DNA of 41,723 bases from IMG/VR virus record IMGVR_UViG_3300021560_000028, positions 1 through 41,723 of that record. The stretch is one strand, 5' to 3'. The DNA is from a virus (taxonomy: Duplodnaviria; Caudoviricetes). This document shows positions 2,246-36,509 of the stretch, in pieces. Position numbers and translations under genes: made by a program. Below the pieces are notes generated by a model that saw nothing but the letters and a program-made list of their open reading frames with translations, ran no database searches and had not been told where the DNA came from. Positions within the stretch are counted from its first letter, which is position 1. Every line of letters starts with the position of its first letter.

Positions 2246-2790
2246 ACAAGAAAAACAACACAAGCGAAGGCTCTATCTGGGTCAAGAGCGAGCTATTGCC
2301 GGGCGGCTCGTACAACGTCACTCTGGACTTTACGCCGGACGACTCGATCACCCTTACCGACGAAGAGGCACTCCAGTACTCACTTGCGATACTGGAGGTT
2401 GCCCATATTGCCGAGTACGAGGCATCTATCCTCGCCCAGATGAAGGCAGCAGATATCAGCGAGACAACTGCTGCGCGGTTTATCGCGGACAACTTCCGGC
2501 CATACCGTCACCTACCGGATACCGGCACGCCGCTAGAGCTAATCCCCGGCATTAGTCAGCGGACCAAACAGCCATTCCTAGTAATCATCCTGCGCGGTGT
2601 CGAAGTCGGACAGTGGGACTTCAAGGATGCACGCGAACACGCCCAGGCAATCCTTGACGTCATCTGCGTAGCACGGCTCGACCAGGTTTACTACCACTCC
2701 CTGGCAGATCGCCTAGAGATGGCCGAGCCACAAGCCCGTACCATGGTCTCTCTGATCGGAAAGTTCAGGCCGAATGGAGTCATCTTATGA
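2242..2790 (+). CDS. Hypothetical protein; last sense codon is TTA overlapping the next ATG
   Basis: GTG 2242 overlaps the upstream TGA. Ends ATC TTA TGA. Confidence 0.7.
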   Translation: MNKKNNTSEGSIWVKSELLPGGSYNVTLDFTPDDSITLTDEEALQYSLAILEVAHIAEYEASILAQMKAADISETTAARFIADNFRPYRHLPDTGTPLELIPGISQRTKQPFLVIILRGVEVGQWDFKDAREHAQAILDVICVARLDQVYYHSLADRLEMAEPQARTMVSLIGKFRPNGVIL

Positions 2791-2921
2791 CTAGACGTAC
2801 GTACGACTGGCGCGATATACTAGTCTCGGGTATCATCCTAGCACTACTACTACTGCTATTGGTACTGTCAATAGCTTTGTCCGAACCGCCATATCATATA
2901 TCCGGAGGTGATCTATGGTGA
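2787..2921 (+). CDS. Small single-pass membrane protein (44 aa)
   Basis: MTRRTYDWRDILVSGIILALLLLLLVLSIALSEPPYHISGGDLW*. Fills the gap exactly with overlaps at both ends. Confidence 0.6.
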   Translation: MTRRTYDWRDILVSGIILALLLLLLVLSIALSEPPYHISGGDLW

Positions 2922-3862
2922 AGAACAAGATACGCTACGTATCACTTCACCACTTACACCATTCGACCTTCAGTCACGGTGATGGCCACAAGCTACCAGC
3001 TATCCACGTAGCGCGGGCTGTAGAGCTAGGCTATACCGCGCAAGCCCTTACAGAGCATGGCGGTACGTCTAGTCACTTCCAGTTCGAGCAGGCCGCCCTG
3101 AAGCTAGGGCTGAAGCCGATATTTGGGCTAGAGGCGTACTGCGGGCCGGTAGGCGAAAACCGTAGCCAATGGAAGTATCACCTCACGATCCTCGCGGAGA
3201 ACGCAAATGGATACCGAAACCTCAACCGCCTTGTCACACAGTCTTGGCGAGATCATCACTACCATCCGACAGTTTCTGGACAGAATCTGGTCGACAATCA
3301 CGAGAATCTTGTCGTACTTTCAGGATGCACTGGTAGCATGCTCGCATGCGCTCTTGTCGGAGGCAAGGGGATCGCCGATCCCACGTCTAGAGACGGTTAT
3401 GGATGGGATGACGCACGACGCGTCATCCGCCGTTTTGCCTCTCTATTTGGGGCCAATTACTACCTCGAAGTCCAGCCCTTCTACGAGCTTGAAAAGACCT
3501 GCCGCATCAATCCAGCTTACGAACGTCTCAGCCGGGAGACTGGAGTTCCACTTGTCGCAACGTGTGATGTCCACTACCCCAGACCAGCAGATTCTGAGAT
3601 GCAGGCTATACTCCACGCAGTACACCGAAAGAACCAATCCATAGACGACGCACTACGCGCCTGGAACTATGACGTCCCTATGACGTTCCCCGAGTCCGAC
3701 AAGCAACTCGGCGAACGCCTGATGAAGACCGGCCTATCCCGCGCCGCAGCATGGGAGGCTATCCTCAATACTGAGCGCATAGCCGAGCAATGTACGGTAA
3801 CCCTGCCAAAGGCAGAACGACTTACCTACCCAATCAAAGACTCCGACTGGGAGCCATGGTGA
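2915..3862 (+). CDS. dnaE: DNA polymerase III alpha (DnaE) N-terminal PHP-domain subunit; contains CAC-TTA-CAC candidate bypass site
   Basis: GGAGG SD. Motifs SLHH(LH)HSTFS.GDG, ALTEHG, KPIFGLEAY, HLTILA.N..GYRNL, LSGC, YYLEVQP, VATCDVHY. Confidence 0.9.
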   Translation: MVKNKIRYVSLHHLHHSTFSHGDGHKLPAIHVARAVELGYTAQALTEHGGTSSHFQFEQAALKLGLKPIFGLEAYCGPVGENRSQWKYHLTILAENANGYRNLNRLVTQSWRDHHYHPTVSGQNLVDNHENLVVLSGCTGSMLACALVGGKGIADPTSRDGYGWDDARRVIRRFASLFGANYYLEVQPFYELEKTCRINPAYERLSRETGVPLVATCDVHYPRPADSEMQAILHAVHRKNQSIDDALRAWNYDVPMTFPESDKQLGERLMKTGLSRAAAWEAILNTERIAEQCTVTLPKAERLTYPIKDSDWEPW

Positions 3863-7349: not shown

Positions 7350-7637
7350 CTACGTACCAGTAAGGCCGGTATAGGCCTGGTTCTCTTGCGGGTTCGCTAG
7401 CAGGTAGTCGGTACTGATAGATGTAGCGGCAGTAGGGACACCTGCACTAGACACTATTGGCTCGATGACGTTGCTAGTAGTGCCAAGTCCGAAGGCAATA
7501 ATCATCTGAGTCATGCCAGGATTCGGCGCAGTTGATCCCCAGATGACATACCAGCCACTACCGCTTATGAGCGCCGAGTACGTCGCAGGCACCGCAGGCT
7601 TGGCCAATGGTGTTACTTCTGGCGATCTCTCTGTCAT
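7350..7637 (-). CDS. Hypothetical protein
   Basis: ATGA overlap with the methyltransferase stop; last gene of the late operon. Confidence 0.6.
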   Translation of the reverse strand: MTERSPEVTPLAKPAVPATYSALISGSGWYVIWGSTAPNPGMTQMIIAFGLGTTSNVIEPIVSSAGVPTAATSISTDYLLANPQENQAYTGLTGT

Positions 7638-8239
7638 GGGCCCGGCTCCTTCACTAGCGGATCATGCGGTTCTTGCCGCCTGATCATCTGGTCGTATACG
7701 CCGGGGATACGCGGTTGCGGCTTCACCCATACGCCCCGAAATGGCGCCCGGTAGTAACACGGCCAGGCATACGGCTTATGCGCCGTGTAGGCCATCATCA
7801 ATACCGCGCCGGGACGCATCGCGCGCTGAACCGAAGACTCCCAGGCTGACTCGAACTCGTCATCCTTGAACGGTCGCGCGGTATACACGATATCATACTC
7901 GGCCCACGGCGGCGAGTCCGTCCGCAGGTCCATGTACCGGGCATCGACCTCTATGGCGAGTGCCTTGGCTAGATAGTCTTCAGAGATCTCGTAGCCTACC
8001 GCCGTCAGGCCATGATACTTCTCGGCCAGGTATAGCTTTGTGCCGATACCGCATCCGGCTTCACAGAACGAGATCTCGTGCTGTCCTGGGAACATGTGGA
8101 TAGCGACAGTAAGCATCCTGTCGAACTCACGCAGTTCAAGAGGACTCCACCGCCACATCTCAGGGTCGGGGTCCGTCGTCTCCCGTTCCTTGTATAGCTG
8201 TTCCAGTTCCAGGTCCCACAGTTGTTGCTGGCTTAGCAC
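7634..8239 (-). CDS. Class I SAM-dependent methyltransferase
   Basis: Motif I FCEAGCGIG, then VGYEIS, DIVY, MRPGA. GTG 8239 is preceded by GGAGGGAGG. Confidence 0.8.
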   Translation of the reverse strand: MLSQQQLWDLELEQLYKERETTDPDPEMWRWSPLELREFDRMLTVAIHMFPGQHEISFCEAGCGIGTKLYLAEKYHGLTAVGYEISEDYLAKALAIEVDARYMDLRTDSPPWAEYDIVYTARPFKDDEFESAWESSVQRAMRPGAVLMMAYTAHKPYAWPCYYRAPFRGVWVKPQPRIPGVYDQMIRRQEPHDPLVKEPGP

Positions 8240-22230: not shown

Positions 22231-22595
22231 ACCGTCACGCCCGTAATCCGAGTCACATTGATCCGGATGGGAGATTCCCGCCCGGAGAATGGTGACGTCC
22301 AGTAGCTCGGCTCACCCTGGATCTCGTAAGTGTCCCCGTTGTAGATTACCGCGTCGAGCGCGGTAACAACAATACCAGGCGGGAAGAATATGGTATCTGT
22401 CTGAGAAACCTGGTCAGTGAAGATAAGATTCTCGGAACTGCCGGCAGGGACGAACACGCACTGCGGAACCTGGATCAACACATCGTTGTATACGTCATTG
22501 CCGTACTCATCCAGCGTACCGCTCAATACCCGCCGCACCAGTGTCATGGACACGGCGAAGTTCTTCATCACCACCCACTGCCAGTCGATAGGCAT
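22227..22595 (-). CDS. Head-to-tail stopper
   Basis: DEYGN, D...YNGDTYEIQGEP motifs. GGAGGAGG SD before ATG 22595. Confidence 0.75.
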   Translation of the reverse strand: MPIDWQWVVMKNFAVSMTLVRRVLSGTLDEYGNDVYNDVLIQVPQCVFVPAGSSENLIFTDQVSQTDTIFFPPGIVVTALDAVIYNGDTYEIQGEPSYWTSPFSGRESPIRINVTRITGVTV

Positions 22596-22705
22596 AACTT
22601 CACCTCCTCCGCAGGCGCGGAATCAGAATCAGGCAATACGACCTCCGTCGTGAGCGGGTATCTAACCCCGCCCACGACAACCACGCCGGAGATCGTCACT
22701 GTCAC
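22568..22705 (-). CDS. Tiny protein paralogous to part of the upstream gene; TTA at codon 37 overlaps the stopper ATG
   Basis: GTGA overlap at 22705. VTVTISGVVVVGGVRYPLTTEVVLP aligns with QTVSITGTVVVGGVSQDVSTSITLP. Confidence 0.5.
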   Translation of the reverse strand: MTVTISGVVVVGGVRYPLTTEVVLPDSDSAPAEEVKLCLSTGSGW

Positions 22706-22980: not shown

Positions 22981-23627
22981 TACAGCTTCACCTTCATTGT
23001 TCCGTACGATTGCCTGTAATCTTGTAGAGCGGTCTTCATACCGGCATCGATGAGCGCGGCATTCAATCCCGCGCCGGACGTACGACGCATCGAGAACGAG
23101 TAAGCCCCAACAGACTCACTCATCAGAGTTGCGGACTGCGTAGGCGTCGCTAGCTCGGAGCAGCACGCGTTGCACAACACGGCGACGACGTCAGCCGGGA
23201 CGTCAGCAAATCCATGCGCGCCGGTGACCGTGAATGAGCCGCCCCACCAGAATGTCTCTTCGTACCAGATCTCCGGCAGGTTGATGATGCCGGATAGCGA
23301 CGGGTTGAACACGGTGATCTTGTCGACAGCATCAAAGTGGTACCAGGTCACCTGGATGTCCTGGATACCAGGCGTGCCGGATAGCGCCACAATCTTATCG
23401 ATCGACTGAATCGGCTTCCATGACGTCAGCTTGATGATACCGCCGTCGGCCGTGGTCGTGATCGTGTCGCTGGTGTAGTACAGGAAGTCACGCCGACAGT
23501 ATCGGCGTAGGATACCTGACCCGTCGTCAAGCAGTCCTTGCACACGCGCGGCTTCCACCTGGTTGAGGTTGCGGCCCAGCCTCGCCGCGATATCATCGGG
23601 CGTGGCAAGGCTGGGCAGCGTTCCCAT
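22980..23627 (-). CDS. Head-to-tail adaptor
   Basis: LATPDDIAARLGR...LLDD, HGFADVPADV, SESVGAYS; directly after the capsid gene. Confidence 0.8.
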   Translation of the reverse strand: MGTLPSLATPDDIAARLGRNLNQVEAARVQGLLDDGSGILRRYCRRDFLYYTSDTITTTADGGIIKLTSWKPIQSIDKIVALSGTPGIQDIQVTWYHFDAVDKITVFNPSLSGIINLPEIWYEETFWWGGSFTVTGAHGFADVPADVVAVLCNACCSELATPTQSATLMSESVGAYSFSMRRTSGAGLNAALIDAGMKTALQDYRQSYGTMKVKL

Positions 23628-30301: not shown

Positions 30302-30591
30302 CACTTCTTGCCCTTCTTGGTCCAGGTATCGGGGATGTCCTTGCCCCACCCCTTCGCCTTGGCCACCCTCTTGATGTAGCGCCGGACCTTCTCGTGCTCG
30401 GCCGGGGTATTGGGCCTAGCACGTCCAACCGCCTTGATGGCCGATGCCAGGGAGTTCGGCCCCGTCCGTGCCTGGATCGGGAACCTAGGCGAGTTGGACT
30501 TGTTGGTTTGCGACGGCGGCATTGCCTGCCCCTTGGCCTGTAGGCGTTGCCTGAGCTTCTGTCCCGCTACCGCCGTTCCCGCTGCTGCCAT
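30301..30591 (-). CDS. Basic head-associated protein (DUF6582-like RFPI...AIKAVGRA)
   Basis: RFPI..., AIKAVGRA, VRRYIKR motifs. Confidence 0.6.
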   Translation of the reverse strand: MAAAGTAVAGQKLRQRLQAKGQAMPPSQTNKSNSPRFPIQARTGPNSLASAIKAVGRARPNTPAEHEKVRRYIKRVAKAKGWGKDIPDTWTKKGKK

Positions 30592-31321: not shown

Positions 31322-32886
31322 GGTCCAGCCCCAATAGCAGGCGGCGCACCAGGAACAGCGCCGGGAGTTGGACCAGGCGGGAGCTGTCCGCCCGGAGGAA
31401 TGGGAGCGCCAGGAGGAGCACCAGGAGGCATAGCACCGGCACCAGCCGCAGCTGCCTGCTGTTGCGCTATCATCTGTTGTACGATCTGCTGAGCTTGCTC
31501 CCTCTGGTATGCCAGCTGCCACGACGCGACGTCATCTGACGTAGCTCCAGGCACTCGCGACCACAACTCCTCAGCAGGCACGCCAAGCATCTGCGTCAGC
31601 TTGCCAAGCGCATCAATCGTCGCCGCGAAGGACCGTGCTGACGTGTCGCGCCACAGAATTGTGCCGAACAGGTCATTCCATCCGGCAGTGTTGCCCTGAG
31701 CTAGACACGTAAGTCTGAAGACGTTTCGCCAGGGATCTGTCTGTCCCGCTTGCAGTTCTTCAATCTTCCGGTCGAGTCCGTCGCGAGCAGCTGCGAGCGC
31801 TTCTGCTGACATATTTGCGACCTGTCCCAAAAGATGATACGGCGGAATCTGTGAGACAGTTGACATATGCCGTATTCCATCTTCTCGCACGAGAGAGTAT
31901 GGCTGGAGTGCGGTTTCACCAAATTCTCCAAACTTCGTTGTCGGATCGTCCGACGCCCATACGCGGTCAACGCCCGGCCGGAACGGCATAGTTTCCCGGC
32001 CATCCTCATCGACCGGCGACATACCGGAGACATACCGCTGCCTGAACGCAGCGAACTGCGTCGAGATCATCAGGTTGAACGTGTCGAAGTTGATCTGGTC
32101 CTGGATCGGCATAAGCGGCTCGATCTCGCCTATACAATCCTCTTCGGCATCCAGGTCAACTTCATACAGGAACCGCACTACCGGGCATATACCCATCTCA
32201 TGCGCCGAGATTACCTGCTGCCCGTTGAGCAGAACATCACCTGCTTCCGCAAGATGGATGTTGGCCTGAGACGGATCGACAGCGGCATCGCCGGTTAGTA
32301 TGTACCGGTTCGCTTCATCATAAACGTACACCAACATGCGTGCTGTGCCATTAGGCATGTTGACGACGTTCACCTCGATTGCGAATTGCGGCCACTCATC
32401 ATCTATATCGTCAGCATAGAATGCCGTCATCCTACGCGGGCTAACCGGCCGGATAACCGGCACGTTAGCAGGCTGCTCTTCGTCCGAGGTAAGCTGTCCA
32501 GGCAACACAACGGTGTACGCAGAACCGTACTTGATGACCGCGCGATGAACGCCGTGCTGCCGAGACACCATCCGGTTCGCGCGGAACGCATCCCATTCCG
32601 GAGTAGGCTTCTGCGGAGATGCCATCTCATTAGCCGTCGTGCCGGTCGGCTTGTATCCGTCCACATGGAGGTTCTCTGAGATAACAGAGATGATGAGAGG
32701 CAAAAAGTTCCGCCGTGCCTTCTTGGCTATCCACCGGTACTCAGCATTAACACCGCGCGGGATGTAGGGTGGGTCTTGCCGGCCACGTACGTAGTTCCCG
32801 ATCCGGCGCAGCCTATTCTGTTCAGCCTCTCGCGACGCAAGAGCCTTTTGCGTCGTCTCCACTACCTGATTCGTCCCGATGATCAT
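31318..32886 (-). CDS. Portal protein (SPP1 gp6-like)
   Basis: YVRG, NFLPLI, CPVVRF, GEIEPL..QD.IN, AFRQR, NMSAEAL motifs; follows TerL. Confidence 0.92.
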   Translation of the reverse strand: MIIGTNQVVETTQKALASREAEQNRLRRIGNYVRGRQDPPYIPRGVNAEYRWIAKKARRNFLPLIISVISENLHVDGYKPTGTTANEMASPQKPTPEWDAFRANRMVSRQHGVHRAVIKYGSAYTVVLPGQLTSDEEQPANVPVIRPVSPRRMTAFYADDIDDEWPQFAIEVNVVNMPNGTARMLVYVYDEANRYILTGDAAVDPSQANIHLAEAGDVLLNGQQVISAHEMGICPVVRFLYEVDLDAEEDCIGEIEPLMPIQDQINFDTFNLMISTQFAAFRQRYVSGMSPVDEDGRETMPFRPGVDRVWASDDPTTKFGEFGETALQPYSLVREDGIRHMSTVSQIPPYHLLGQVANMSAEALAAARDGLDRKIEELQAGQTDPWRNVFRLTCLAQGNTAGWNDLFGTILWRDTSARSFAATIDALGKLTQMLGVPAEELWSRVPGATSDDVASWQLAYQREQAQQIVQQMIAQQQAAAAGAGAMPPGAPPGAPIPPGGQLPPGPTPGAVPGAPPAIGAGP

Positions 32887-34551
32887 GAAAAACTCCATAC
32901 TCTGCGCTTGCCGCTCTTGGCTGCCATAGCCCGGCGTTCCTTGTACGCTTTAGATCCGAGTACAAGCCGACGAGCATGCCTCGCGCCAATCATACAAACA
33001 CAGGCGTCGATTTTCTTTGGCGACTTAGGTGCTTCCTTACCAATACTTATGCCCCAGCGGTTCGGCCGACGCCGAGCATTAACAACGTGCCGTCCTAGCG
33101 CCGAGTCTCCATCATGCCAGAATACTGGATCACCCGGAGACTCGATTTCGCTAAGCACCATCTCGCATGCCTGCGTAAACTCCGCAGTATGCGAGCGCAT
33201 ATCCCATGCTACAGGCTGTGGATCACGCCCAGAAGGGACAGCCCATATATCAAGGCCCTCTTCAAACCACTCACGCCACGTAATCTTCGTTGACTCTTCC
33301 CACTCATTGACGTCCGCGAAGAATGCGCAAACATTCCACTTCTCTTGTGCCGACCGTATAGCAAAGTGGACTTCATCAACCGGTACATTACGCGTACCCA
33401 GCGGCTCCCAAACACCAAGAGTGAAAACGAAACCAGTTTCCACATGACATCCAACCAGTGCAGTAGCGTCATCAGTCCTCGATCCATCGAAGAACATAGT
33501 AATATCGTCGCCGTCATTGATCCTGAATTCTGGATCTGACAGTCGTGCCCACTTCTGCTGCGTGGTCCACGCATCCTCGGCCGACTCCGGCCAGTTTAGG
33601 TAGAATCGCTTGGACACATCTAGCGGCGTACGCGGCGAGAGGATACGATTCTCAACGATATCATCAGTATCAGCCCAGAAAGCATCGCCATACGCGAATT
33701 CAACCGCCTTGCGTATGGATGATACGTCATCGAAATCAACATCAGGAGGGGCCATTCGCGAATCATACAGGATCTTACCCTTCCCTTTGAGCTTGCCCTC
33801 TTCTTGCGACACCCACGCATCGAATGTAGTCTCGGCTACCGTCCCCGCGCCCGGCTCCCAGGCATTTGACGTCTCGATAATCCGCGAGCCGGACTTACCA
33901 ACATTACGGTCCATGACTTCGGCAAGCGCTATTCCTCCGTTGGTGGCAGTGAACGACTCGGTCTGATCAAGTATCGCAAAGGTGACAAGAGCACCCTCTT
34001 CGGTAGTTGGCGAACTCGTGATGACCATGAGTTGTCCTCCGCCTGGCACATGGAATATTGTCTTGCCAGCTTCGACATCATAGTCTCGCAGGATTCGCGA
34101 TTTCTTGGGCAGTAGCGCCCGCACCATCCGCATTGTGTTGACGTTGGCCTGGTCATGTGACGTTGCGCCAATCTGTACGAGCGGCATCGACACCGCTTTC
34201 CCAACGACGCCGCCCGGCGCGTCGGAGTCCCATCGCCAGAAGCGGACAGGCGCGAGTAGCTCGATCATCGCCAACACCGCGGCAAACGGAGACTTCCCGG
34301 CACCTTTTGGGTACCGGCGCACTCCGTGATAGAACATCCAGCGCCCCTCGGGCGTTAGCGCATACCACCAAAGTATGAATCGCACTTGCGATTCCGTGAA
34401 CTCCCACCGGTTCCCGGCGTCCGGCCCGTCTGGCTGCTTGAGGTAAAAGGTACTTGGATGCCCAGTGAATCGCTTCCCACCCAAGCGTAAGCTCAGGCAA
34501 GCCTTCAGGAAGCGTAACCAGTCTGTCACGTGGCGCTACCAATGTACTCAT
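32883..34551 (-). CDS. terL: Terminase large subunit; needs recoding (7-nt bypass or +1 shift) at TAC CTT TTA C CTC, 34452-34440
   Basis: 5' frame MSTLVAPRDRL..LTLGWEAIHWASKYL joins the 3' frame KQPDG...PKGAGKS (Walker A), FDGS..DD, KIDA. GAGGTG SD before ATG 34551. Confidence 0.9.
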
Positions 34552-34573
34552 TCAATCACCACCTCTCGCAAAC

Positions 34574-35398
34574 CTACTTGGTAGCTACATACGTAGCGAG
34601 TTGCTTCATCACGGCCGCACTCGGCTTAGCGACCTGCGCCCTGCCGCCCTTGGCCGGATGAGCAGTCAGGCCCTTCGGCGGCTTTGGTGCTGCGATACGC
34701 CGCTGTGCCGCAACCTTGTGAGCTGCCTTCCGTACTGCGGTCTTCTTCCTTGCCGGTGCCTTCTTCTTGGCCTTAGCCTTAGCCTTGGCCGCCGCCTTCT
34801 TGTGGCTGTGCAGGTATATCCCGAGCCTAGCCAGCCCCATGCCTAGCCGGGCAGCCCCGCCGAGCGCACGCCCCGCCCCAAGCAGGCCGCGTCCCAGTCC
34901 GCCGCGACGGCGCTGTTGCCTACGCTGCTTGTCCCGCTTCTTGCGTTCCTCCTCGCGCTTCTTGTCGCTGGCCGCGCGTTCCTCACGCCTTGCCTTGTCG
35001 CGCTCAGCGAAGTCCTTGTTGCGTTGCTCCCGGTCAGCCGCCCTGGACGCATCCCGCGCGGCGTCACGCCGCCTGGTCTCCTCGGTGATGCTCTGATGTA
35101 GGGCTTCCTTCCGGGCCTGTAGCTGCTCCTGCCTAGCGACACCATACTGTGCCATCGCCTTGTGGAGTTCTTCTCGCGAGATCCCAGCTGACCTAGCTTC
35201 GCGGCCCGCAGTCTCGACTGCCATCCTGTCCTGTAGTATCTGATGACGCCGAAGAGCAGTCTTCTCATCGCGCGTAATCGTGTCCGCCGCGCCGCGTTCG
35301 ATTTTGCGAATGGCATTGCGGACGTGCTTGTGGTGTTCGCCGCCAAAGATCCAGCGCCCGTGGAACCCCCGGATCTCAGCCGGGTTGAAGTCAACCAT
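34574..35398 (-). CDS. Highly basic Arg/Lys/Ala-rich protein with N-terminal FNPxExR..GRW motif
   Basis: Lies between terS and terL; coiled-coil middle and histone-like KA-rich tail. Confidence 0.65.
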   Translation of the reverse strand: MVDFNPAEIRGFHGRWIFGGEHHKHVRNAIRKIERGAADTITRDEKTALRRHQILQDRMAVETAGREARSAGISREELHKAMAQYGVARQEQLQARKEALHQSITEETRRRDAARDASRAADREQRNKDFAERDKARREERAASDKKREEERKKRDKQRRQQRRRGGLGRGLLGAGRALGGAARLGMGLARLGIYLHSHKKAAAKAKAKAKKKAPARKKTAVRKAAHKVAAQRRIAAPKPPKGLTAHPAKGGRAQVAKPSAAVMKQLATYVATK

Positions 35399-35846
35399 CG
35401 TCCGTCCCCGTCCTCACTATGCCGAGACGTCCGTGCCACTTGATCACGGCATCGTCAGCCGCTTCCTCATCCTGATCAGTGACATCCTGATCAGTGAGTT
35501 CGATTCTGTTCTTCTTGCGGTCGATGACCGTCACGCCGAGCCGAGCCGACAGCCGCTCGAATACCGGCAGTAGGTTCGCCCGGTACGTACGCAGGAAGAT
35601 GTCATAGATCTGCGCCGCCATGACGGCCGTAGCCCAGTCGGAAGCCTCATAGAACTCCGACTGGCCGCTAAGCGCTAGCGCCCGGAACCAGGACTGTGCC
35701 TGCGGATGCCAGTTCGGATTCGCCTCTGGGATCGGGATGTCCTTGCGCTTAGACTCCCCGGTCGACACAGCCAGGAAGCGCGGGTCATCACCGCCACCAG
35801 TACCCGCGCCCGTACGATTCTCAGGCTTCTTCTTTGGAGCAGGCAT
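35391..35846 (-). CDS. terS: Terminase small subunit
   Basis: PEANPNWHP.A..WF..L..SGQ..FYEASDWA...LG.T..DR...RIEL actinophage TerS pattern. Confidence 0.85.
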   Translation of the reverse strand: MPAPKKKPENRTGAGTGGGDDPRFLAVSTGESKRKDIPIPEANPNWHPQAQSWFRALALSGQSEFYEASDWATAVMAAQIYDIFLRTYRANLLPVFERLSARLGVTVIDRKKNRIELTDQDVTDQDEEAADDAVIKWHGRLGIVRTGTDDG

Positions 35847-36031
35847 AACTTACCCTTCGGCATAACTGGCCCGTCTCCCGACTTCCAGTCCTTCGGCACC
35901 ACGCCCGCGCCATGGCAGATCTTACACACGTGCGCGTCGACCGAGCCGGTGCCATTGCACGGCGGACATATCTTCTCGTCGGGGCCAGGTTCCCGATGCT
36001 TCTGGATCGGGACAAATGGGGCAGGAGGCAT
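35675..36031 (-). CDS. Small DnaJ-type zinc-finger protein (2x CxxCxGxG); probably effectively ends at TTA 35848-35846 (61 aa)
   Basis: CPPCNGTG...CKICHGAG. Sequence after the TTA is an off-frame read of terS. Confidence 0.65.
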   Translation of the reverse strand: MPPAPFVPIQKHREPGPDEKICPPCNGTGSVDAHVCKICHGAGVVPKDWKSGDGPVMPKGKLCLLQRRSLRIVRARVLVAVMTRASWLCRPGSLSARTSRSQRRIRTGIRRHSPGSGR

Positions 36032-36360
36032 AACAACATCTCACCTTCAGTATGTACATCACGAGCACCACGAATGACACCCGGATGTGGGTCTTGCGGC
36101 CTCTTGCGCAACGTGTGTCGTACGTTGCTTTGTAGATTTGACCGCCGACGATGGTGTGACAAGCAAAGACCCCGCAGCATCTCCAGGCGATGGTCATTGG
36201 CATCGCCCATGTGGTCGCACTCAGTCGCATCCTGTCCGCAAGGCCCCTCTTCATCATGGAGTAGGCCCCATTGGCATACGCGATCCCGCGCCAGAACAAT
36301 CATGCGTAGACGCCCCCACCCTGGAGGCAGGGGCGTCTTGCGCCAGCTACCGGCGCTCAT
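35821..36360 (-). CDS. Packaging-associated HNH endonuclease; probably effectively ends at TTA 36033-36031 (109 aa)
   Basis: LP.GW..LR..VL.RD..CQ...ATECDH...DH....LRGLC..HH...RP...HPG. First gene of the late operon. Confidence 0.8.
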   Translation of the reverse strand: MSAGSWRKTPLPPGWGRLRMIVLARDRVCQWGLLHDEEGPCGQDATECDHMGDANDHRLEMLRGLCLSHHRRRSNLQSNVRHTLRKRPQDPHPGVIRGARDVHTEGEMLLCLLPHLSRSRSIGNLAPTRRYVRRAMAPARSTRTCVRSAMARAWCRRTGSRETGQLCRRVSYACSKEEA

Positions 36361-36509
36361 AGGGACACCCTGAGGGAAGTGCCCGAGCGCACCGTCGCAC
36401 TACCACCGGACGCAGGACAAGGGAATGATCCCGCGCCACAAACCTCCATTGGGCCGAAACCCTCCATCCTGATCCACCGCCTCAGTGCGACATTCGGTGC
36501 CTAGGTAGT

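Follow-up and report, generated by a model that had tools for sequence, protein, structure and literature searches.

At the head of a phage packaging operon, two successive genes run into a TTA codon exactly where the ATG of the next gene begins. The first encodes an HNH endonuclease and the second a small zinc-finger protein, and the gene that follows is terS. One-base stop-start overlaps (TAATG, TGATG) couple translation. Might UUA, a leucine codon, stand in for the stop at such an overlap? A first-pass annotation had proposed this, casting the two junctions as a regulatory device in which a stall at UUA leads to reinitiation on the overlapping AUG.

The DNA analysed here (the window) comes from the record of an uncultured virus; it is a fragment of 41.7 kb, with a completeness of 64% and a GC content of 56%, and the sequencing runs that contain its sequence are soil metagenomes. 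It carries the gene set of a tailed phage, with terS (PF25673), portal, capsid and tail genes, an endolysin and ThyX, and its DNA polymerase III alpha is split. Among cultured phages, those closest to it are actinophages of Mycobacterium or Corynebacterium, with a protein identity of 46-50%. Table 1 lists the features discussed below.

Table 1. TTA sites of the window and the genes around them (c., codons)
Feature	Position	Strand	Remarks
HNH endonuclease gene	36034..36360	-	109 c. to TTA; PHROG 333, residues 4-97, E 2e-16
TTA ending HNH	36031..36033	-	A shared with zinc-finger ATG (36031-36029); context GAG ATG TTG TTA TGC
Zinc-finger gene, two CXXC motifs	35849..36031	-	61 c.; DnaJ-like CXXC match, residues 19-47
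TTA ending zinc finger	35846..35848	-	Overlaps terS ATG (35846-35844); context GGT AAG TTA TGC
Terminase small subunit gene terS	35391..35846	-	151 aa; PF25673, E 7e-23
Terminase large subunit gene terL	32883..34551	-	True start ATG 34551; PHROG 9; frame broken by TTA-led gap
Predicted terL hop site	34440..34449	-	Take-off CTT 34449-34447; 7-nt gap TTA C CTC 34446-34440, last codon = landing
36-c. ORF (GTG 22705)	22595..22705	-	Third junction; ends AAG TTA TG on head-closure ATG 22595
Predicted in-frame hop site CAC TTA CAC	2951..2959	+	6 nt; metal-binding His motif of polymerase PHP gene 2915-3862 (PF02811)
TTA TGA ending gene 2242-2790	2785..2790	+	ATG 2787 opens 44-c. ORF; same in G001

Could the TTA sites be assembly errors? 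Logan contigs from three runs (X1, X2 and X3) span the junction region, 34300-36500, without indels and rule this out. X1 and X2 are identical to the window and may be its source, and X3 is a strain that differs by 2 letters, away from the junctions; a fourth run, X4, covered only 13 of 30 bins. An error at the terL gap described below is also ruled out, the gap length differing between the window (7 nt) and the related locus L002 (8 nt).

TTA-ATG junctions in the window and its relatives

Both junctions lie where the first-pass annotation had placed them. Read as leucine, TTA extends the HNH protein from 109 to 179 aa and the zinc-finger protein from 61 to 118 aa, adding 70 and 57 residues; the recognisable domains finish upstream of the TTA, as had been claimed, and ordinary one-base overlaps do occur on the same strand (TAATG at 22982, TGATG at 30303). 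The zinc-finger protein is 68-79% identical in 10 relatives, and the 61-codon ORF can be taken as a real gene. Shine-Dalgarno-like runs precede both overlapped ATGs (GAAGGTGA and GAAGGG; their pairing is computed to be weak). Therefore, the zinc-finger gene and terS can start independently too.

What stands at the end of HNH in relatives? We examined 45 loci, comprising the best 43 of 70 found, the window and L087. The gene ends in TTA-TG at 19 of them (two being identical copies), in TGA at 20, in TAG at 3, in TAA-TG at 2 and in TGA-TG at 1, and no interior TTA occurs in HNH at any of the 45. Where HNH directly overlaps the zinc-finger gene (20 loci), the junction is TTA-TG at 18, TGA-TG at L280 and TAA-TG at L087. 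In the closest pair of HNH genes, L288 encodes RKGAA followed by TTA and L087 encodes RKGAA followed by TAA. A tree of 34 HNH rows requires 7 changes between TTA and a stop codon, 4 of them forced by well-supported branches. At L300, the TTA-TG of HNH overlaps a different gene. Zinc-finger ends, surveyed in 23 family members, include TTA-TG in 3 (the window, L044 and L087) and TGA-TG in 2, one of which is L017. The stop-like role proposed for UUA is thus borne out by the TGA or TAA at the equivalent column of homologs (L280 and L087 for HNH, L017 for the zinc finger).

In L002, L003 and L013, a gene for a long proline- and glycine-rich repeat protein, absent from the window, lies between the zinc-finger gene and terS; its homolog in the complete relative G002 has no Pfam or PHROG match.

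Perhaps the read-through tails are genuine parts of the proteins? At HNH ends they would run for 4 to 381 codons. HNH homologs finish 5-30 residues past an HPG motif; the distance from HPG to TTA ranges from 8 to 23 residues and the preceding codon is variable, and TTA-TG is nevertheless kept. We compared the window with 4 relatives across the zinc-finger overlap. Substitutions at codon positions 1/2/3 of the zinc-finger frame number 47/38/110, and 75 of 137 changed codons are synonymous in that frame versus 25 of 159 in the tail frame. The apparent similarity of the tails is the shadow of the zinc-finger frame. Conserved C-terminal extensions, named beforehand as an observation that would refute the stop-like reading, were not found in the homologs: the tails are not conserved and, on this comparison, are not under selection. 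Nor did an indel in the tail remove a normal stop, since TTA is kept across relatives despite different tail lengths.

TTA inside and at the ends of genes across the clade

Among the 9,390 interior codons of 26 long ORFs in the window, TTA does not occur once; TTG occurs 58 times, CTA 149, ATA 144 and TTT 75. Off frame, TTA is found at 10.1 per 1,000 in the window, and the interior absence therefore exceeds chance. We then surveyed 722 gene ends from 98 families with at least 3 members, drawn from 35 related contigs and loci (604 kb). TGA ends 317, TAG 243, TAA 132 and TTA 30, the last spread over 21 of the 98 families; HNH was excluded from this count by a score filter, and all but a few of the 21 TTA families were inspected by eye.

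By such inspection, TTA stands exactly at the stop column, without an ATG overlap, in L125, L051, G009, L037 and G001. It immediately precedes a real stop in L120, in G009 and at 2785 in the window, and likewise in L003 and L022; four TTA ends without overlap have the context TTAG or TTAA. The site at 2785..2790 is ambiguous and can also be read as an ordinary ATGA overlap. In L039 and L053, TTA ends terS itself, and the tails there measure 43 and 121. For a control we took 47 overlaps in which a sense NNA codon other than TTA lies over the ATG; all of these reach a real stop within 0-15 codons, and the 6 TTA overlaps do so after 9-89. A cruder and noisy test of stop-column enrichment found TTA nearby in 9 of 51 long run-ons past the homologs' stop.

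The third junction of the window ends a 36-codon ORF that is an internal repeat of the preceding gene and overlaps a head-closure gene (PHROG 501); the copy in G001 is 97% identical and keeps the junction. One clear exception to the avoidance of interior TTA was seen in the clade, at 2605 of L022, where TTA falls in an HExGH motif at a position that is Phe in 3 homologs. In G816, a more distant phage within a genome of the candidate host family (see below), TTA lies inside terL at an Ile column.

Are the two packaging junctions, then, a special regulatory device, as had been suggested? This part of the earlier proposal was not supported: TTA ends are scattered over 21 of 98 families, some without an overlapping ATG, and other junctions hold TGA-TG (10 of 12 and 7 of 9 overlaps) much as the HNH junction holds TTA-TG. 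At both junctions TTA looks like an interchangeable stop and not a dedicated switch. Taking all sites together, we conclude that UUA very probably acts like a stop.

TTA-led inserts in terL and the polymerase gene

TTA has a second setting in these phages. The frame of terL is broken, reading AAG TAC CTT TTA C CTC AAG; L002 has CTT TTA GC CTC (8 nt) at the same position, and the gene is continuous in 21 other loci. The N-terminal 34 codons, upstream of the break, are 62-90% identical to intact homologs, and this N-terminus is mis-called in P0001, P0122 and P0123 (from contigs of 57-66 kb). Pairing to the anti-Shine-Dalgarno sequence at the site is weak (-2.4 kcal/mol) and a 3' hairpin has -12.5 kcal/mol, both values being without shuffle control. 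Just before the TTA-broken terL of L002, the first ~35 terL codons are duplicated (7360-8060); this first copy continues into an unrelated ORF, apparently for a homing endonuclease of the HNH type.

In the polymerase PHP gene, an insert in the metal-binding motif keeps the frame. The corresponding motif of G001 reads CAT TTA CAT and thus co-varies with the CAC TTA CAC of the window, and 6 of 8 homologs lack the insert. G009 has two further in-frame TTA-led inserts (18532 and 49697), which face a gap in all 9 and all 14 aligned homologs; both fall in catalytic motifs, one in the polymerase PHP domain and one in a protein that we take to be RuvC-like. Looking 6-12 nt ahead, we found a matched landing codon for 5 of 5 insert sites but for 4 of 32 terminal sites, both lists being hand-picked. 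The terL and PHP inserts are likely hop sites of the phiHau3 kind. If the inserts were read with leucine, terL would be cut short or a metal ligand moved out of place, from which we infer that UUA is not efficiently read as leucine during productive infection.

The candidate host and its decoding of UUA

The best terL match on genome contigs in the host search was 53%. At the level of phylum, terL was found in 3 of 401 genomes; at that of class, endolysin in 0 of 401; at that of family, endolysin in 10 of 301, the best match (67%) lying on an unrelated virus-like contig. Of 341 candidate-family genomes, 6 have DNA matches, as prophage-like regions with terL at 30-53% where present, and no CRISPR spacer match was seen in the search. 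The endolysin and prophage-like matches point weakly to Streptosporangiaceae as the host family. A virus-like contig binned in G1008 has an endolysin 65-67% identical to that of the window. This contig (L254, G1008:C665) has high GC and a gene set unlike that of the window phage, the endolysin alone being common to both; the ORF after its endolysin ends in TTA right before its stop.

A short tRNA-Leu(UAA) is encoded in 29 of 31 candidate-family genomes, and in 20 of these 29 it has C33 instead of the usual U33 (L193-L221, L275); our literature search on a C33 tRNA-Leu(UAA) found nothing. ARAGORN miscalls this short C33 tRNA as Phe(AAA) in G006, a genome that also carries 26 tRNA genes in one array, Leu(AAG) and Ile(TAT) among them, at C4 1197000-1200600 (L183). 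In conserved neighbourhoods of candidate-family genomes, TTA is absent both from true coding sequence and from gene ends. TTA does occur in G006 inside Pfam domains of accessory genes. The host data agree better with a leucine codon that is rare and poorly read than with a change of code.

We wondered if a host release factor might read UUA. In G006's family, 11 of 30 genomes have a codon-reading motif other than SPF in RF2, namely SKY in 8, SAY in 2 and SQY in 1 (L149-L178, L127, L274); G006 and G1008 have SKY. SKY-type RF2 is not supported as a UUA reader, as SKY genomes still have TTA inside genes, and SPF is the motif in all six genomes that carry related prophage DNA. The Ser204 position of organelle RF2 was mapped onto bacterial RF2 by counting. 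RRxTAF was found in 3 actinobacterial RF2 sequences, among 150 matches listed of 342. This variant was rejected as a UUA reader: G086 (RRHTAF) uses TTA at 318 of 44,650 interior codons. G366 is uninformative on this point, TTA being near zero there in all frames. Among the matches listed, the RRHTSF serine is replaced by Ala, Thr or Pro in G086, G355, G366, G390, G401, G223, G242, G281 and G229; three of these variants also have SPT for SPF, and TTA use was checked in the Ala genomes only.

Proposed hop or release at a hungry codon

How might one codon serve both as a terminator and as the head of a hop site? On evidence that is comparative throughout, we lean towards the reading that UUA is a hungry codon during infection, at which the chain is released by host factors or, where a matched codon is near, the ribosome hops. 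In an actinomycete host, working tRNA-Leu(UAA) would be in short supply, as is that of bldA while Streptomyces is growing, and the ribosome would pause with UUA in the A site. With a codon readable by the P-site tRNA 6-9 nt ahead, it would hop, as predicted for terL and the polymerase PHP domain. With no matched codon near, an untagged protein would be released by a host factor, most likely RF1 or RF2 acting on a near-cognate codon, or ArfB. Once the 109-residue HNH or the 61-residue zinc-finger protein is released, translation would begin again at the AUG that overlaps the TTA, in the manner of TAATG and TGATG overlaps. A rise in the tRNA late in the life cycle of the host would spoil terL and polymerase and let the terminal TTAs be read through, all in the direction of shut-off. 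The simplest rule for all sites is that the ribosome pauses at an unread UUA and then either hops or lets the chain be released.

The usual fate of ribosomes stalled at rare codons is tmRNA tagging, which counts against this proposal. Passages of PMC2635970 report few additional tmRNA-tagged proteins in a bldA mutant. ArfB acts on mRNA extending past the A site according to parts of PMC7641280, and prefers short truncated mRNA according to parts of PMC7427801; G006 encodes what looks like an ArfB homolog. Portions of PMC4255298 would perhaps limit bldA-type control to Streptomyces and Kitasatospora, which counts against our reading. For phiHau3, the relevant portion of PMC10732093 gives experimental support to hopping at a slow UUA.

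What would a phage gain from TTA? In phiHau3 the proposed rationale is one of lysis and lysogeny. It is not transferable here because no integrase was found: neither PF00589 nor PF07508 has a match in 5 records, of which 2 have a completeness of at least 90%. What is left is a phage that senses the growth phase of its host, or near-neutral drift. The phage records searched (4 records for release factors) hold no tRNA, RF-1-family or PTH2 gene.

Alternative readings of UUA

The main alternative is that the host has reassigned UUA to stop. A soil actinomycete without tRNA-Leu(UAA) would have a release factor that reads UUA, and its phages would use UUA as a fourth stop and, in terminase and polymerase, as the trigger of a stop-hop; the junctions would be plain stop-start overlaps. 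TTA does behave as a sporadic fourth terminator across many unrelated gene families, also just before real stops, and essential proteins end at it, hence the need for clean release. The phiHau3 hop was functional in E. coli with UUA changed to UAA (in the relevant part of PMC10732093), RF2-type factors read UUA in some organelles (in sections of PMC12574857), and an altered RF2 motif exists in some of the candidate-family genomes counted above. However, no such host was found in our small host samples. G006, with SKY, has interior TTA in Pfam domains and keeps tRNA-Leu(UAA), and G086 has TTA within genes despite RRHTAF. Terminal TTA is absent from conserved host neighbourhoods, and the 6 genomes with prophage DNA are all SPF. 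If UUA were a stop both fixed and efficient, repeated inserts in terL and polymerase would bring nothing but cost. We consider reassignment unlikely, though a serious contender.

Perhaps, instead, the host reads UUA as leucine and infection removes the tRNA, through a phage protein or a host defence nuclease? This would reconcile interior TTA in the host with its total avoidance in a phage that uses CTA and ATA well over a hundred times each, and in G002, a complete relative, most of the small genes belong to no family. Against it, no nuclease, tRNA-modifying or translation gene was recognised among the non-structural ORFs of G002 (70 searched with Pfam, 55 with PHROGs). We think removal of the tRNA improbable.

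It is equally doubtful that UUA is simply leucine, with C-terminal tails tolerated and TTATG merely a common start context. TT precedes ATG at 25 of 385 starts, some tails are only 4 residues long, and the interior TTAs of L022 and of G816 terL resemble sense codons. However, long tails occur only at TTA overlaps and extend for up to 381 residues across whole genes, and a leucine reading of the inserts would leave terL truncated and the PHP His motif broken.

The weakest alternative, a hop or slip at UUA into the next gene to give HNH-zinc finger and zinc finger-terS fusions, has in its favour the AAG codons that follow in frame with terS in the window, at 17, 20 and 23 nt downstream, and the predicted short TTA hops of the clade, and we give it hardly any credence: the AAG hop onto the terS AAG run, raised in the first-pass annotation, would need 17 nt versus 6-9 nt for the hops here, no matched landing codon lies within 6-12 nt of 36033 or 35848, the P-site codon varies (TTG, GCG, GTG, GCC, TCA, GGA or ATG in HNH; AAG, AGC or GCC in the zinc finger), the landing site is not conserved, other genes separate the zinc-finger gene from terS in most relatives, and relatives with real stops or intervening genes make separate proteins.

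Relation to known systems

In our literature search, with most subscription papers and supplements outside it, a sense codon acting as a terminator appeared in organelles only, and UUA recoding in phages as terminase hops only. TTA replacing a gene-end stop does not appear in the relevant sections of PMC10732093 ('UUAUG' 0 times, 'HNH' 0 times).

UUA is a termination codon in labyrinthulean mitochondria and peDinoflagellate plastids, as set out in parts of PMC12574857. As described there, and as in our phages, UUA lies at 3' ends where homologs stop; in the window's clade it is almost absent from gene interiors, L022 being the one clear exception. Those organelles have a mutated RF2-type factor, whereas here the ribosomes are those of a bacterium infected by a phage; predicted hop sites here begin with TTA as well, and no host with a matching change was found. 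If the host itself did end genes with UUA, this would be a new bacterial genetic code and the first sense-to-stop reassignment in a bacterium.

A second parallel is the upstream ORF of Streptomyces adpA, where UUA lies 5-6 nt before the main start and pausing and coupling are proposed (in the section of PMC10732093 that treats it). UUA stands beside a downstream start in both, and the TTAG/TTAA context in the window's clade recalls the adpA +1 stop. As that section has it, the adpA upstream ORF is a short leader with a real stop 2 codons on; in contrast, UUA here overlaps the AUG by 1 nt and ends full-size proteins, with no stop for up to 381 codons.

The closest system is phiHau3. UUA-led terL gaps reported in the text of PMC10732093 are two of 10 nt in phiHau3 and gaps of 7 nt in the StrepC.1 and S. 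catenulae prophages. Like phiHau3, the window has a terL gap, here of 7 nt, with TTA at its start and a matching landing codon at its end, and TTA is otherwise avoided. Unlike phiHau3, its gap lies ~40 residues upstream of the first phiHau3 gap (by comparison with the g6 sequence), and there is also an in-frame gap in the polymerase PHP motif, and no integrase was found. Automatic annotation goes wrong in this clade as a consequence of such sites, giving terL a false N-terminus in protein database entries (P0001, P0122, P0123) and HNH false tails.

A single codon thus apparently has two outcomes by a simple rule: a hop where a matched codon is close, and otherwise a stop. The short natural cassettes described here make testable what a bacterial ribosome does at a codon that lacks its tRNA. 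At the packaging junctions, the geometry is that of the TAATG and TGATG overlaps, and the three forms interchange at one column; unlike in those overlaps, the first triplet here is a sense codon in table 11.
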